DNA of 32,000 nt from Candidatus Methanoperedens sp. (GTDB lineage Archaea > Halobacteriota > Methanosarcinia > Methanosarcinales > Methanoperedenaceae), in the NCBI GenBank assembly GCA_027460535.1, contig JAPZAR010000027.1, positions 270,001 to 302,000 on the forward strand. Reading direction: 5' to 3'. The notes beneath the pieces are model-generated. The model had not been told where the DNA came from. It ran no database searches and saw nothing but the letters and a program-made list of their open reading frames with translations. The translations under genes and the position numbers were made by a program. This document shows, one piece after another, positions 26,214 through 31,668 of the stretch (the first letter of the stretch is position 1; each line of letters begins with the position of its first letter).

Positions 26214-26476
26214 CACATACAAAACCATTCGATAAGTGCCCTATTTGCGGCGGTGAGCTTGTAGAGAAAGAGGTTGAGAAGCTCTTGAGAGGAGGCGTGA
26301 ATACCGCTATCATAAAAGTCAGGGCAGAGGTTTGCCAGCACTGCGGAGAGAGACTGTATTCGCAGGAAACGGTTAAACTCTTCGAGGAGATTAGGAGAAA
26401 ATTAGAACGCAAAGAAGTGGCAAACTTCCAACCGATCGGACAGTCATTTCAGGTAACAGTATCAGATTCAGCTTAA
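26210..26476 (+). CDS. YgiT/MqsA-type zinc-ribbon protein
   Basis: CPICGG...CQHCGE separated by about 30 aa, with a beta-rich interior. This is typical of the YgiT-type zinc finger. Confidence 0.6.
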   Translation: MTHTKPFDKCPICGGELVEKEVEKLLRGGVNTAIIKVRAEVCQHCGERLYSQETVKLFEEIRRKLERKEVANFQPIGQSFQVTVSDSA

Positions 26477-26499
26477 TAATCTACTACATTCCAGCCTGT

Positions 26500-26716
26500 G
26501 GAAGGCGCCGTCCATTAAAATAAAAAACCGCAGATAAAGGCGCCCAGAGTCGCGCCTCTGGAGGGCTCAAAGGGGGAGCCGTGAATGAAAATGACAAACC
26601 GCAGATGAAGGCGCCCAGAGTCACGCCTCTGGAGGGCGTGTACACGTATGCCCGCAGGCATACGTGGGCGCGGAGTCGAGAACCCGCAGGGTTTCGGCAT
26701 GATGAACGCAGATTTA
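26500..26716. repeat. Mosaic hairpin-module repeats (one partial copy and one complete 119-bp composite element at 26597-26715)
   Basis: aaccgcagat[a/g]aaggcgcccagagtc[g/a]cgcctctggagggc occurs at 26526-26565 and 26597-26636. Hairpins lie at 26544-26561, 26615-26632, 26643-26666 (10-bp stem) and 26680-26694. Both termini are identical to those of 28509-28668. Confidence 0.85.
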
Positions 26717-26794
26717 TAACACTGTCTCCAGAAATTATTAGCTTTCACCAATTTTTTGAAGTAAATGTTATTATTTCATTAGAAGCTCATGCAG

Positions 26795-26890
26795 CAACCC
26801 GCCCGAAGGGCGGCGCCGTATATGAAATAAAGAACCGCAAGATGAACGCCCCGAGTCGCGCCTCGGTGGTGGGGGCGAAAGCCCTCATCC
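26795..26890. repeat. Further hairpin modules of the same family
   Basis: Hairpins at 26799-26813 (ccgccc/gaa/gggcgg), 26851-26866 (ccgag/tcgcgc/ctcgg) and 26873-26884 (gggc/gaaa/gccc). The unit ggcgccgtatatgaaataaagaaccgcaagatgaacgcc parallels 26504-26543. Confidence 0.7.
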
Positions 26891-26994
26891 CTATTTTCAA
26901 GCTTTGATAAACCCAATAATATCAAGCATTATTAACATCATCAAAAAAAGGCGCCGCATATTGTTTCAAGCTATAGCGAAAACGTCTTTGCATT

Positions 26995-27349
26995 TTATCC
27001 GATCTCGTGACGTATTCGGACGGCTCCTGGAGTTATCACTGAAAATGATTGTTTAAGTTCTGTTCCATGCTTCTTTATGGCAGAAACCACTATCTCCGCT
27101 TTCCGGGTAGGAGAAAGCCCTGCCAATCGGATTAGCACAACTCCACTGGTTATGCGCCGCTGACGAAAAACAAGCTCACCAAAGTCTTTATCAGCCGTTA
27201 ACAGCAGCACAGTTTTCTCATTAGCCATTTCAAGCACTTCATCGTCAGAAATCCCTGCATTCGTTGGCAACGTACTGCACATTATGTCCCATCAACCGGA
27301 GACGCTCAACGATTTGTCTGTCTACGTTCTCATCGACCAGAAAATTCAC
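26995..27349 (-). pseudogene. DUF5615 (PIN-like) toxin gene, frameshifted
   Basis: The N-terminal piece runs from GTG 27349 (VNFLVDENVDRQIVERLRLMGHNVQYVA...) and stops at 27245. The C-terminal piece (AGISDDEVLEMA...LTADKDFGELVF...) is in another frame (track ORF 26995..27282). The join requires a 1-nt shift near 27255-27270. Confidence 0.65.
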
Positions 27350-27582
27350 GAGACCGCCTCAGCGACCGGGTACACCACATCAGCGCGTAAAGCTTGTGCA
27401 GCAAATGCAAGAGCCGCTCTTATCGCTTCGCGCGTCAGCCGTGGATGAGCCTCCAATATCTGTTCCACCGTTTCGCCTGCGGAAAGCTTTTCCAGGATCA
27501 GCTCCACAGTGATGCGGGTTCCTGCGATGACAGGTTTGCCCATCATTACTTTGGGGTCGGATACAATCAATTTTTTCTGCAT
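27346..27582 (-). CDS. DUF433 antitoxin-type protein
   Basis: IVSDPKVMMGKPVIAGTRITVELILEKLSAGETVEQIL is the DUF433 signature. The ATG at 27582 is preceded by gaggtg. Its stop overlaps the GTG of the DUF5615 gene. Confidence 0.75.
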   Translation of the reverse strand: MQKKLIVSDPKVMMGKPVIAGTRITVELILEKLSAGETVEQILEAHPRLTREAIRAALAFAAQALRADVVYPVAEAVS

Positions 27583-28127
27583 TTTGCACCTCTTTAGCTG
27601 AATGGTTTGAAGCACCGGGTGAGGGATGATATTATCGTGTTAGATATGGTGAATTCACATTTATATTATTATGGTTCTTTTGCAACTCTGCAACGTCACG
27701 TGCAGGGCGACTTTTAGTTTGCGTCAGATTTGAAAGCGGAAGAGAGTACGACAACGATGTCCCCGCTGTTTTTCGCCTACCACCACTTCATGCTCTCCCT
27801 GAACCTCGTCACCCTCTCATCCTTATCCGGTTTCCTGAAAACATAGAGATGCTCATGTCCGATGAGATAGAAGTCATACTTCTTCCCGAACCACTTCTCC
27901 CTCGTGCTCTTCATCTTCCACTGGAGCTTGATGATATCCTCGCGCAATATGAATCCCGCCTCAAGGAAGCTCATGAGCACCCTCGGCGTAATGGGCACGA
28001 AATGCTTGTTGCGCCGCGTATCGCCAATCAGGATGGCGCAGTGCTTGTTGGGCTTCAGGACGCGCATGCACTCACCGGCGACGAGGCGCATCTCCCGATC
28101 GAACTCGGCGATGCTGTGCACGCTCGA

Positions 28128-28204
28128 AAGCCGAAACTTCGGCTTGCGCAGTGTTGGGGTATGCTCTGCATACCCCTCGTTTGATAAACATTTCCTAAAG
28201 GTTT
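28128..28204. repeat. Three-hairpin module lying in frame inside methyltransferase copy A
   Basis: Hairpins at 28128-28145 (aagccgaa/ac/ttcggctt), 28156-28176 (ggggtatgc/tct/gcatacccc) and 28186-28204 (aaacattt/cct/aaaggttt, one mismatch). The module is colinear with 131-180 on the opposite strand. Confidence 0.8.
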
Positions 28205-28247
28205 TTGAGAGGTCGCCCTCGCGGTCATGGGAATAGGGGATGATGCT

Positions 28248-28348
28248 GGAGTACAGAGAAAGTAGCAAAGAATCAACCACAGAGGACACAGAGTTCACAG
28301 AGAGATGTTGTTTTATCTCTGTGTCCTCCGTGCTCTCTGTGGTTTTTT
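28248..28348. repeat. ~100-bp block with long nested inverted repeat, replacing the motif IV region of copy A
   Basis: The arm aaccacagaggacacagag (28275-28293) faces ctctgtgtcctc[cgtgctct]ctgtggtt (28317-28344). An inner stem is cacagagat/atctctgtg. There is no counterpart in copy B, which has 85 nt encoding ...DLIATHPPYA here. Confidence 0.8.
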
Positions 28349-28508
28349 ATCTCATGCGTCTGATACTCTGAATCGAGCGGCATGTAAACAAAATCCAGCA
28401 TGTTGCGCGCCACCATGACAGCATCAGGATTGATATCCACGCCCACGGGGCGCCAGGAGTTTGCATTCCATCAAAGCTTCCTGAAAAAATGCGGTATTTT
28501 GGAAAAAA

Positions 28509-28668
28509 AACCGCAGATGAAGGCGCCCAGAGTCACGAGCCTCCCGAGTCGCGCCTCGGGAGGGCGCGTCCACGTATGCCTTCAGGGCATACGTGTTGTT
28601 TGGGAGTCGAGAACCGTTAGGTTTCGGTCTGAGAACCCGCAGGGTTTCGGCATGATGAACGCAGATTT
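28509..28668. repeat. 160-bp composite hairpin element inside methyltransferase copy A
   Basis: The left 29 nt (28509-28537) are identical to 26597-26625, and the right 38 nt (28631-28668) are identical to 26678-26715. Internal hairpins lie at 28543-28560, 28571-28595, 28612-28625 and 28633-28647. Confidence 0.85.
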
Positions 28669-29010
28669 GCTGTTACATAGGAGGTAATCCCCCCATGCCG
28701 GCCATCTGGTCCAGCACAAGCTCGCCGGGCTGGGTATAGCGCAGGATGAGGTTGCGCGGGATGTAGGGGGACCAGTTGCCCCTGTAGTTCCCAACGTGCG
28801 TCGCCCAGTCGCAGCGGTCGGAGAAGCTCCAGACCTTGGTGGTTTCTGGGGTGAAGGTGGAGGGGGCGAAAAATCTACCCTTATCGGCATCTTCAAGCTT
28901 AGTGAATGGTAATCGTTATGCAGCAGGAAAAAGAATATACACAATACAGGATAAATAAAAATAATATAAGATCTTATAATAACAAATCGCAAAACCATAA
29001 GGAGTTCATA

Positions 29011-29205
29011 ATGACGGAAGCAGAGATAATTGATGCAATTTATGACAACGGGGTTCTTAAACCTTTAAAAAAGATCGAACCATATGAAGGCAAGATAATA
29101 GAGATACGCATACGGAAAGTGGAAAATATTTTGAGAGAAACTTCTGGAATATTCAAAGGAAAATACAATAAGAAAATGAGATATGAAATGTATGATACTC
29201 ATTGA
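29011..29205 (+). CDS. DUF104-type antitoxin
   Basis: MTEAEIIDAIYDNGVLKPLKKI... matches the archaeal DUF104 pattern (AxYENGVLKPL). It overlaps the downstream PIN gene. Confidence 0.65.
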   Translation: MTEAEIIDAIYDNGVLKPLKKIEPYEGKIIEIRIRKVENILRETSGIFKGKYNKKMRYEMYDTH

Positions 29206-29635
29206 TTCGTCTGTTTTCCTGAAACATTTTCTTGAAGGTGATGCAAAAGCGCATGATTTTTTGAAAAACGCTAAAGACAAAGCGGTTATTTGTGATATTA
29301 TTGTAAATGAAGTTATATATATTTTAATGAAACAATACGTTGTCAATAGATACGATTTAAAACACTACGATGCTATTGATCATCTCAAGAAACCAGATAT
29401 TTTCCAGGAAGCATTTGACAATGCGCTTGTTTTTATAAAATTGATAAAAGCCATTGATTGCGAAGTACTACCCGATGCGAGATACTTTGAAATGATGGAT
29501 ATTATGGGAAAATATAACCTTCTTCCGAATGATGCTTTGATCGCTGCGACATGCAGAGCCTATGGAATATCCAGGGTTGCATCTTTTGACAGCGATTTAA
29601 AAAATTTGGATTTCATAGAGCTTATTGAATTATAA
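29183..29635 (+). CDS. vapC: PIN-domain toxin
   Basis: ILIDSSVF, NEV, LLPNDALIAA and SFDSD supply the four acidic PIN positions. An alternative start is ATG 29192. Confidence 0.8.
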   Translation: MKCMILIDSSVFLKHFLEGDAKAHDFLKNAKDKAVICDIIVNEVIYILMKQYVVNRYDLKHYDAIDHLKKPDIFQEAFDNALVFIKLIKAIDCEVLPDARYFEMMDIMGKYNLLPNDALIAATCRAYGISRVASFDSDLKNLDFIELIEL

Positions 29636-30065
29636 TTAAAAGTCATTGTATGGATTGAGCAGACACTGGAGTCCGGGGGGTGTTAGGGGAAGGTGAGAAT
29701 AACATCTGAAACGCCTACCACCACTTCATGCTCTCCCTGAACCTCGTCACCCTCTCCCCCGCATCCGGCTTCCTGAACACATAGAGGTGCTCATGCCCTA
29801 TCAGATAGAAGTCATATTTTTTCCCGAACCACTTCTCCCTTGTGCTCTTCATCTTCCACTGCAGCTTGATTATATCCTCGCGCAGGATGAGCCCTGCCTC
29901 AAGAAAGCTCATCAGCACCCGCGGCGTGATGGGCACGAAATGCTTGTTGCGCCGCGTATCGCCTATCAGGATGGCGCAGTGCTTATTGGGCTTGAGCACG
30001 CGCATGCATTCAAGCGCGACTTTCCGCATCTCCTCGGCAAACTCAGCGATGTTGTGCACGCTTGA

Positions 30066-30128
30066 AAGCCGAAACTTCGGCTTGCGCAGTGTTGGGGTAT
30101 GCTTTGCATACCCCTCGTTTGATAAAAA
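30066..30128. repeat. Hairpin module inside methyltransferase copy B (two of the three hairpins of copy A)
   Basis: Hairpins at 30066-30083 (aagccgaa/ac/ttcggctt) and 30094-30114 (ggggtatgc/ttt/gcatacccc). The third hairpin is absent and an A5 run (30124-30128) remains. Confidence 0.8.
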
Positions 30129-30397
30129 GGTCGCCCTCGCGATCATGGGAATAGGGGATGATGCTGGCATAGGGAGGGTGGGTGGCGATGAGGTCAACGG
30201 ACTCGCTCTCTATCAGGTCAAGCGAGCGCGCGTCTCCCGTGTATGTCCTGATCTCAGGTACTTTATACTCGGCATCCAGCGGCTTGTAAACAAAATCCAG
30301 CCTGTTGCGCGCCACCATGACAGCATCCGGGTTGATATCCACACCCACGGGGCGCCAGGAGCTTGCATTCCACCAGAGTTGTGCCTGAGCCCATCAT

Positions 30398-30531
30398 CCC
30401 GAGTCGCGCCTCGGGAGGGCGCAGACACGTCAACCGTTGCGCCAGTTGACGTCGCACACACGTATGGCTCCGCCATACGTGGATATCGCTGCGCGATATG
30501 CCCGCAGGGCATACGTGGATTCCCGCTTACG
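30398..30531. repeat. 134-bp hairpin-module insertion splitting the SAM-binding motif of copy B
   Basis: It lies between codon D (30532-30534) and MMGSGTT (30397 downward). Hairpins are at 30398-30415, 30428-30451, 30459-30481, 30483-30499 and 30497-30513. Confidence 0.85.
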
Positions 30532-30926
30532 GTCAAGCACATGCTCGCCGGGCTGTGTATAGCGCAAAATGAGGTTGCGCGGGATGTATGGCGACCAGTT
30601 GCCCCTGTAATTCCCCACGTGCGTGGCCCAGTCGCCGCGGTCGGGGAAGGACCAGACTGTGGTGGTTTCGGGGGTGAAGGTGGAGGGGGCAAAATTTGAG
30701 ATCGTCCACTTCGGCTGGAGTTTTATTTTTGTTTCCCCGATTTCCACTTCCGTGTGGGATTGGAGGAAATGTTTGTAGTCAGTCCTTGTGATCTCGAACA
30801 AGGATCGATATTGATATGATTACTAATATATAAATTAATATGATCTAATTATGTGAATATAATTAAGTTGGAAGTAAGGTGTAAGTAAGTTATAATTAAA
30901 AAATCCGATTTAAGATCATTAATGCA

Positions 30927-31109
30927 TTATTTATTTTCAAAGATTCTCGTATATTTTAATATGGTTAATTTTCCTTCATTAGTAATTTCCAAAGAAAAAA
31001 CATCCCCCTCATTTATTTTATTTTCTTTGCAAACCTGTGTAGGTATTGTAATATCCAGAGAATCTGTACCGTGATGAGTGCGGGCTTTTACAGTGAATTT
31101 TTTACCCAT
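30927..31109 (-). CDS. AbrB/SpoVT-like small DNA-binding protein
   Basis: 60 aa. LDITIPTQVCKENKINEGDVFSLEI fits the swapped-hairpin AbrB pattern. It lies between the endonuclease and methyltransferase genes. Confidence 0.6.
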   Translation of the reverse strand: MGKKFTVKARTHHGTDSLDITIPTQVCKENKINEGDVFSLEITNEGKLTILKYTRIFENK

Positions 31110-31164: not shown

Positions 31165-31668
31165 CTAATTTTCTGGAAGCAAACCTAACAAGAGTATTGG
31201 GACAGGAATTGGCAACAATTTAAAATATCGATATGCAAAGTCGAATTCAGCCATATTATTTACGCTAGCAGGGCGAGTTGGGAAAAACTCTTTTGGTGTT
31301 GTGGGAACAATCAAGACTGCCAAAGAAAGAAGATTTTTTGTCAATCCAAAATGAAATTTATAATAATCACGATAGATGGTTGCACTGTTTCCAAATTGAA
31401 TCTCTACAAAAACATCATTCTTTTGATAGTCTCCTATTAATTTTGGATTTTCATAAAGCACAGGTTGTGGCTGCCAATTATATTTGAAAAATTCAGCATC
31501 AAATGCTTTATTGTATGCTGTTTGATGTTTATACTCGGTGCCGTTTTGCTGAATTTCGAATTCAGGCTTCCATTTTACAGAATCTATGCATGAAAATATT
31601 TCTTGTACTTCATCGACATTACGAAGTAAGCGCGGACTGCAAAAAAAATACTCTTTCTTAAATTTCAT
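31165..31668 (-). CDS. BglII/BstYI-like type II restriction endonuclease
   Basis: 167 aa. IGDYQKNDVFVEIQFGN parallels the BglII catalytic segment (D...VEVQFSN) as recalled, and the C-terminal VPILLLGL parallels VPIRLVGL. The ORF is uninterrupted. Confidence 0.55.
   Translation of the reverse strand: MKFKKEYFFCSPRLLRNVDEVQEIFSCIDSVKWKPEFEIQQNGTEYKHQTAYNKAFDAEFFKYNWQPQPVLYENPKLIGDYQKNDVFVEIQFGNSATIYRDYYKFHFGLTKNLLSLAVLIVPTTPKEFFPTRPASVNNMAEFDFAYRYFKLLPIPVPILLLGLLPEN

Follow-up and report, generated by a model that had tools for sequence, protein, structure and literature searches.

The window analysed here is a stretch of 32,000 nucleotides (nt) of the methane-oxidising archaeon Candidatus Methanoperedens sp. 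(ANME-2d; assembly GCA_027460535.1, contig JAPZAR010000027.1, positions 270,001 to 302,000 of the forward strand). It contains, in tandem and on the minus strand, two copies of a gene for an N6/N4 DNA methyltransferase (Pfam PF01555), copy A at 27777-28870 and copy B at 29715-30801, both interrupted at the codons of motif I. The interruption of copy A, a 222-nt insert at 28475-28696, is probably a nested selfish-repeat insertion of two layers in a type II methylase copy that is 5'-truncated and dead, the first layer being old and the insert of copy B being unrelated to it and equally old. The comparison was made within a set of 49 Methanoperedens genomes, designated by G-numbers (G000 is the own genome, of 2.9 Mb), whose methylase loci are designated by L-numbers. 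All features of the two copies described below are on the minus strand.

The host gene

The curated cut-off of the N6_N4_Mtase family (PF01555, 26.7 bits) is reached in both copies only by their C-terminal open reading frames (ORFs), with 31.4 bits in copy A and 27.9 bits in copy B. Neither copy has motif I and motif IV ((D/N/S/H)PPY) intact in one reading frame, whereas the intact relatives have both. In copy A an insert stands in place of the SGTT of motif I and a CACAGAG repeat in place of motif IV; in copy B a split motif I is accompanied by a frameshift. Uninterrupted homologues of about 300 amino acids (aa; 305 aa for example) were identified in many species of the genus, with up to 91% identity, and all read ...NLILRYTAPGE(L/I)VLDQM(A/M)GSGTTLVECKLLGRRAVGVDINPDAVMV... 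and ...ATHPPYASIIPYSHDREGDLSSVHNIAEF... in these regions. The motif I region in the intact homologues from other Ca. Methanoperedens species is VLDQMAGSGTTLVECKLLGRR, with the extended reading VLDQMAGSGTTLVECKLLGRRAVGVDINP. No intact methylase of this family was identified in the own assembly, where the window ends 553 nt before the end of its contig (C27) and a copy may be unassembled.

The nearest solved relative of the host methylase by sequence is 2zie, a "putative modification methylase". As in the N6/N4 DNA methyltransferases (PF01555) of type II restriction-modification (R-M) systems, the intact relatives contain motif I as DxMxGSGTT and motif IV as HPPY, and the host gene adjoins an ORF of the BglII endonuclease family; unlike them, the two copies of the window are broken.

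Anatomy of the copy A insert

The homology of copy A to the intact gene ends after ATGGCCGGC (QMAG, 28697) and restarts at TTG ATG GAA TGC (L-V-E-C) from 28474. The last gene codons before the insert are GAC CAG ATG GCC GGC (D Q M A G, 28697-28711), as identified by alignment with the intact gene and with a copy of genome G020 that carries the same type of insert (A-type). By the same alignment, the 222 nt of 28475-28696 are found in place of the 12 nt that encode SGTT. The initial annotation had placed a 204-nt insert at 28472-28675, an interval lying almost wholly inside the 222-nt insert and including only three gene bases (28472-28474). Its description of the letters is accurate: the interval is 204 nt long, it begins with a TAA (28675-28673) followed by 67 stop-free codons (QQICVHHAETLRVLRPKPNGSRLPNNTYALKAYVDAPSRGATREARDSGRLHLRFFFQNTAFFQEAL), and the frame then continues with ATG GAA TGC AAA CTC CTG (MECKLL). 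Ahead of the TAA the minus strand of copy A reads ...GELVLDQMAGMGGLPPM (also ...RYTQPGELVLDQMAGMGGLPPM). The boundaries are displaced by the alignment with intact homologues, and the glycines of GMGGLPPM or MGGLPPM, taken for the glycine-rich loop that precedes the insert, belong with the TAA to the insert itself and not to motif I. The site is 3 codons (9 nt) away from the site in copy B, not ten codons. The open frame is not exceptional: when the 201 nt are shuffled with their dinucleotides preserved, 21% of the shuffles are open in that frame. The features "in-frame" and "ten codons apart" vanish on alignment with intact homologues, and neither the open frame nor a length divisible by three carries any functional meaning in this case.

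The hairpin content and the repeated nature of the insert were confirmed. The 222 nt fold at -45.6 kcal/mol against -29.6 +/- 3.5 for the shuffles (z = -4.56; none of 200 shuffles did as well), a repeated composite element is present inside the interval at about 28509-28668, as first described, and the insert has 46 partial matches in the genome of the organism itself. A scan of 26300-31000 with Rfam 15 (E <= 1) gave no match in 28472-28696 and only sub-threshold, chance miRNA-like matches on the palindrome at 28272-28347.

Two layers were distinguished in the insert, the outer one being derived from an element with 10-bp repeats. Its degenerate left flank (28670-28696) holds the TAA at 28675-28673 and is homologous to TGGGTGGTCACTTCAGATGTTACAA in the G020 insert, and also to the ...ATAATCCCTRT CAACAAATCTGCG left regions of other copies. 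The first 10-bp repeat, CAAATCTGCGTTCATC (28654-28669), ends in a first TTCATC (28654-28659) and belongs to a sequence, ATCTGCGTTYATCTGCGTTYATCTGCGGTT, with about 31 copies in the own genome. The inner layer is a GC-rich hairpin cargo of about 132 nt (28522-28653), absent from the orthologous G020 insert and composed of ATGCCGAAACCCTGCGGGTTCTC, a second GAAACC hairpin, the hairpins CACGTATGCC...GGCATACGTG and CCTCCCGAG...CTCGGGAGG, and CTCGTGACTCTGGGCGCC. A second TTCATC (28516-28521), direct duplicate of the first, borders the cargo on its other side, and the "empty" form with two repeats and no cargo, AAATCTGCGTTCATCTGCGGTTTT, is present at C25:22263. The outer layer is completed by the last repeat TGCGGTTTTTTTT and the right flank CCAAAATACCGCATTTTTTCAGGAAGCT (28475-28515), which align with the G020 insert and with a solo element at G000:C11:194878. 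A likeness of the flank of the latter element to the methylase was considered and discarded, being the stop region of an unrelated gene.

The outer layer: a 10-bp-repeat element

The insert of G020 (contig JAHIFK010000161) has the same junctions as that of copy A, after ATGGCYGGC and between ...AGGAAGCT and TTGGTGGAATGC. It comprises 96 nt, read in frame within an open frame of 333 aa as TGGGTGGTCACTTCAGATGTTACAA-CAAATCTGCGTTCATCTGCGTTTATCTGCGGTTTGATTT-CCAAAATACTGCATTTTATTTTTAAGGAAGCT, and its internal flanks are homologous to those of the copy A insert in a three-way alignment of the intact gene, G020 and copy A. The outer layer derives from an element with three 10-bp repeats ATCTGCGTTY (present two to three times, with AT-rich flanks), of which it is a truncated copy without the gene. 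Since another species has this layer at identical junctions, the event is old and predates the own genome; the element took the place of the SGTT codons, in the S-adenosylmethionine-binding motif I, before related species split.

The triple repeat has about 31 copies in the own genome, mostly intergenic and often near gene ends. Both genes of this genome for GxxExxY nucleases (TIGR04256, E = 9e-42; PD-(D/E)XK) adjoin ATCTGCGTTY/CGCAGAT arrays (regions G000:C24:133839-134710 and G000:C6:26519-27047). With the strict pattern the repeats are located on both sides of the gene at C24:134234-134626 and just downstream of the gene at C6:26703-27047, and the C24 cassette carries a string of hairpin modules after the gene. 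ATCTGCGTTY is the end repeat of small GxxExxY nuclease cassettes.

Outside the window, a triple 10-bp repeat at G000:C11:132323-132352 lies inside an open frame of 782 codons that resembles a double U32 peptidase. It continues the frame there as ...SENNEPQMNADERRFVERG..., with 558 open codons on one side and 224 on the other.

The inner layer: hairpin cargo

Composites with the same two ends and variable hairpin content were identified at at least 8 other sites of the genome. The ends of the copy A cargo are 100% identical to sequences elsewhere, over 38 nt with window positions 26678-26715 and over 42 nt with C32:8487, and the outer flanks of copy A are visibly less similar to those of G020 than the cargo ends are to other composites; the inner layer is therefore younger than the outer one. 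Its anatomy is that of GC-hairpin modules between duplicated TTCATC inside a 10-bp repeat. The cargo arrived later, and its route would have been either insertion into a TTCATC target or homologous exchange with a composite of identical ends. Hairpin modules are present in all 49 genomes of the genus. In the own genome they form 81 clusters, almost all outside real genes and only one or two within plausible genes, and such elements would act as non-autonomous selfish repeats, similar to REP, BOX or MITE elements, that accumulate in dispensable DNA.

The insert of copy B

The insert of copy B (30398-30530) was located by alignment between the codon following VLD and the first codon (ATG) of MMGSGTT, 9 nt (3 codons) upstream of the copy A site. 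It is an old two-hairpin unit with a nested cargo of its own, a 67-nt block of three hairpins (30430-30496) that interrupts the GTATG hairpin, lodged in the 3' arm of the unit's first hairpin, and that the simple forms of this insert do not have. The nested block is 93% identical to a sequence at G000:C11:5117-5236. Simpler inserts of this type (B-type), of about 61-80 nt, occur at the same site in nine other species (G005, G010, G015, G042, G049, G051, G053, G055 and G057). The simple form is (CCCGATTACCCTTCGGGAGC)GGGAATCCACGTATGCC-loop-GGCATACGTGTCTGCGCCCTCCCGAGGCGCGACTCGGG, and the inserts of G010 and G055 carry other nested cargo. Its presence at the same site in nine other species means that the B-type insert predates the own genome.

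The A-type architecture is a 10-bp-repeat element with hairpin cargo and the B-type architecture a two-hairpin unit with nested cargo, only one common hairpin module being shared. The initial annotation proposed that the two paralogues had been hit separately. The inserts do represent distinct events, with positions 9 nt apart in the alignment to intact homologues (the finding of both at one position would have counted against separate events), unrelated junctions and unlike architectures, but they were not acquired separately within the own genome, which both predate. A-type and B-type inserts are thus distinct events, both older than the species and neither of them recent in the paralogues of the own genome.

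In a copy of G042 (L046/L107, G042:C50, minus strand near locus position 969) the sequence from RYTAP to the middle of the B-type insert has been lost. The deletion runs between two TGCGCC(C) microhomologies, and the gene sequence is joined directly to the CCTCCCGAG hairpin.

Other lesions of copy A

Copy A (27777-28870) is a 5'-truncated pseudogene without start codon, whose homology begins at FAPSTF, and contains four lesions, as identified by tblastn and blastn against an intact homologue and by three-frame translation. Apart from the motif I insert, a net deletion of 5 nt in the LLGRRA codons (CTCCTG GCGCCCC, 28447-28459) shifts the frame 20 nt after the insert. This deletion, CTCCTGGCG(C/T)(C/G)CCGTGGG, is common to copy A (28447-28459), copy B (30341-30353) and a G042 copy (L046). 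The region of motif IV (HPPY) is replaced by a second repeat of three CACAGAG facing three CTCTGTG (28248-28348), and a third repeat module (AAACCTTT.. / GGGGTATGC..GCATACCCC) is located between the REGDL and SSVH codons (28128-28204), the same site as in copy B. With the TAA, the 5-nt deletion, the replaced motif IV and neither N-terminus nor start codon, copy A is irreversibly dead.

The replacement of motif IV by the same palindrome was also identified in the B-type copies L048 (G055) and L044 (G057). Its presence in copy A and in the B-type copies of two species indicates that lesions have recombined among copies. The architecture of this palindrome (3 + 3 heptamers with spacing of about 10 nt) mirrors that of the ATCTGCG repeat element.

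The tandem array and its neighbours

Recombination within the tandem methylase array is evident because the copies cluster by genome, not by insert type, in a tree of the downstream 600 nt, and because the lesions are mosaic: the 5-nt deletion and the REGDL-SSVH module are common to copies A and B, which are unlike at motifs I and IV. Lesions would be shuffled in the array by unequal crossover and gene conversion, with such a combination of shared and differing ones as the outcome. Throughout the genus the array consists of one full-length copy followed by 5'-truncated copies that start at FAPSTF without start codon (L041 in G015:C16, L017 in G014:C38, L016 in G004:C11 and L011 in G008:C36), separated by small toxin-antitoxin-like cassettes, and the copies within one genome are more alike than their positional counterparts in other genomes. 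In other species the B-type copy is secondary and truncated at its 5' end; that of G000 and of G042 has a full N-terminus and stands beside the endonuclease, an arrangement that unequal crossover would produce.

The endonuclease is an uninterrupted ORF of the BglII family (31165-31668, minus strand; PF09195, E = 4e-10), directly upstream of copy B, and beside it, also upstream of copy B, is an AbrB/MazE-like gene (30927-31109, minus strand). An AF2212-like/PIN pair is located between copies B and A and a DUF433/DUF5615 pair downstream of copy A. The methylase locus lies in a restriction-modification and toxin-antitoxin island of Ca. Methanoperedens.

A recurrent hairpin insert splits the codons of DWATH and VGNY in the secondary copies L008 (G010), L048 (G055) and L001/L019 (G009, second copy). 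In G010 it is in frame and open, as DWAT-QINRYARLPYVDATSTGATV-VGNYRGNW.

Target preference and conversion between copies

Two explanations had been offered for the neighbouring inserts, a preferred target in the DNA that encodes the motif and the spread of one insert by gene conversion between copies. For the former, the coding DNA of motif I (GELVLD...GSGTTL, for example in L041 and L097) forms in the consensus fold an imperfect 16-bp inverted repeat, GAGCTTGTGCTTGACC / GGTTCAGGCACAACGCTT, which would expose an 8-nt loop, AGATGNNN, as single-stranded DNA and make of it a hotspot for hairpin elements. Two unrelated elements have inserted at a distance of 9 nt from each other, one (B) within the predicted loop and the other (A) at its 3' foot, and a third, different truncating element was identified about 12 nt upstream in G004, L067 and L082. 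The stem forms 12-16 of its 16 pairs in Methanoperedens copies against 5-7 with slid partners, and is stronger there than in distant homologues (7-11 pairs), without being present in every copy. The stem is nevertheless what synonymous-codon resampling gives (12.0 pairs against 11.3 +/- 1.6), the sites in the gene of L051 lie outside predicted loops, and about 80 other copies of the genus are uninterrupted at motif I. Hairpin inserts were also found at no fewer than four other sites of the gene (between TTV and WSF, between DWATH and VGNY, at motif IV and between REGDL and SSVH), and one close pair among about six events is unremarkable: on a gene of 900 nt some pair would fall within 9 nt with p of about 0.3, as a rough estimate. 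A hotspot is not demonstrated by these data and is unlikely, the hairpin-loop target being a weak lead. Gene conversion between copies A and B would account for the 34-nt CCTCCCGAG hairpin module that both inserts contain (91% identity) and for the shared 5-nt deletion and REGDL-SSVH module. That module, however, is among the commonest of the genome (27 matches), the junctions and architectures of the two inserts are unrelated, and each type has its own orthologues in other species. Conversion of the insert itself is excluded because the M(A/M)G codons are upstream of the insert in copy A and downstream in copy B, so that the positions cannot coincide; by the alignment with intact homologues, the spread of one insert between A and B is refuted and its probability is close to nil.

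Constraint on the interrupted copies

Several results weigh against the reading of the inserts as nested selfish repeats in dead genes. The downstream 600 nt contain no stops in the B-type copies of G015, G053, G049 and G051 and in the A-type copy of G020. The ratio of nonsynonymous to synonymous distances (dN/dS) was estimated pairwise and from three-taxon distances. Pairwise, it is 0.09-0.13 for the interrupted copies of G015, G053, G049 and G020 against 0.075 for intact pairs; on their own branches, the three-taxon omega of the same copies is 0.08-0.18 at bS 0.13-0.23. Between copies A and B, the 117 C-terminal codons show a dN of 0.048 at a dS of 0.66. The core of the B-type insert, compared in seven species, is 94.5% identical and varies almost exclusively in the hairpin loop, at a flanking dS of 0.3-0.55, which means that B-type inserts are constrained, homogenised or recently transferred. 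The GC hairpin modules were linked to no transposase or other enzyme of mobilisation either, and no terminal inverted repeats were found for the cargo. A link to RAYT/IS200 transposases was rejected, none of the four Y1 genes of the genome (IS200/RAYT-type, PF01797) having a repeat module within 4 kb. The constraint may reflect conversion from functional neighbours, an old insert that has moved into fresh copies, a homogenised repeat family, or a genuine function, for instance by excision or as a split enzyme.

In its strongest form this evidence would mean that the inserts are tolerated or reversible and that the genes still matter, by precise excision (an on/off switch), by removal or bypass at the RNA level, by in-frame translation, or by a split enzyme whose second part starts anew at the motif I ATG. 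The low omega on the branches of the interrupted copies and the absence of stops in both halves favour such a reading, as do the conserved insert core with its changes confined to the loop, the fully open insert-bearing frame of G020 (333 aa), the in-frame insert of G049, and the fact that every copy reads VLD(Q/P)M(V/A/M)GSGTT again once the B-type insert is precisely taken out. The A-type insert, on the contrary, has deleted SGTT and its removal cannot restore motif I; the copies of the window bear irreversible lesions, most B-type copies have no start codon or N-terminus, and the clustering by genome fits gene conversion from functional neighbours. B-type inserts have lengths of about 80, 69, 67 and 61 nt and leave the halves in different frames in G015, G053 and G051, which excludes read-through translation for this type; with the frame shifted in 3 of the 4 otherwise intact B-type copies, in-frame translation was rejected as a general rule. 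An archaeal bulge-helix-bulge intron was rejected as well, since its geometry of two 3-nt bulges with a 4-bp helix between them is not seen at the junctions, and six B-type inserts folded together with their flanks give a consensus of two internal hairpins and an exon-exon stem. Tolerated or reversible inserts are accordingly quite improbable. The same low standing applies to a more specific version, in which the motif I inserts would be conserved, transferable interruptions that move between paralogues or excise precisely and so switch a BglII-type R-M methylase, with the native stem-loop as preferred landing site. Such a switch, if true, would explain why dN/dS is low in the interrupted copies, why the inserts are conserved beyond synonymous sites and why motif I returns when the B-type insert is precisely removed.

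Comparison with known repeat families

A search of the literature on palindromic, repeat and miniature inverted-repeat transposable elements (MITE) of Methanoperedens, and on GxxExxY, found no description of these elements. Repetitive extragenic palindromic sequences and bacterial interspersed mosaic elements (REP/BIME) have a GTAG or CGTC tetranucleotide at the foot of the palindrome and are associated with REP-associated tyrosine transposases (RAYT) in Enterobacteria and Pseudomonas (PMC3733652). The modules described here are likewise short, GC-rich, imperfect palindromes in many copies, mostly extragenic and often near the 3' ends of genes, and form mosaic clusters of several hairpin types conserved throughout the genus. 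They differ in their hairpin feet, which vary (GTGGACG, GTGTCTG, GTGTACA, GCGGATA) and show no fixed GTAG/CGTC tag in the inspected copies, in that no Y1/RAYT gene is flanked by modules, and in their archaeal host. Unlike REP/BIME, the hairpin strings are typically lodged in the 10-bp-repeat element tied to the GxxExxY cassettes.

The BOX elements of Streptococcus pneumoniae are dispersed, non-coding and modular, with fixed terminal modules and variable internal ones (boxA-boxB(n)-boxC). The composites identified here also have fixed termini and internal modules of variable number and kind, but the sequences are unrelated; the termini consist of 10-bp units in direct repetition with TTCATC duplicated, and near-perfect GC hairpins form the internal modules. 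With MITEs they share the small size, the non-autonomous character, the many copies and the capacity for nested insertion, and the cargo has a short direct duplication, TTCATC, at its borders. They differ from MITEs in that the cargo has no terminal inverted repeats, a matching full-length insertion sequence was not identified, and the primary A-type and B-type inserts have no target-site duplication, the A-type having instead deleted 12 nt.

Rickettsia palindromic elements (RPE) are in-frame inserts in ORFs (PMC3733652). Palindromic repeats in coding sequence, with a frame that is sometimes open (the A-type copy of G020, the B-type copy of G049 and the U32 peptidase ORF), are a point in common; the difference is that most in-gene copies here are in pseudogenes with a broken frame, and that the copy of the window starts with a stop and is accompanied by other lethal lesions. 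On the basis of its TAA and these lesions, the window copy does not represent an RPE-like insert in a functional gene; its relatives in G020 and G049 are open.

Taken alone, the insert is a case of ordinary repeat-driven gene decay, a selfish repeat in a dead gene. The locus is of modest interest as a dated example of repeat nesting, together with the signal of constraint in the interrupted copies. It is a clean natural record of how a hairpin-repeat family grows, in which the end repeat of a nuclease cassette landed and a hairpin cargo was nested later at a duplicated TTCATC, the empty and the filled states of the element being kept in different species and the tandem methylase array showing the shuffling of lesions between paralogues.

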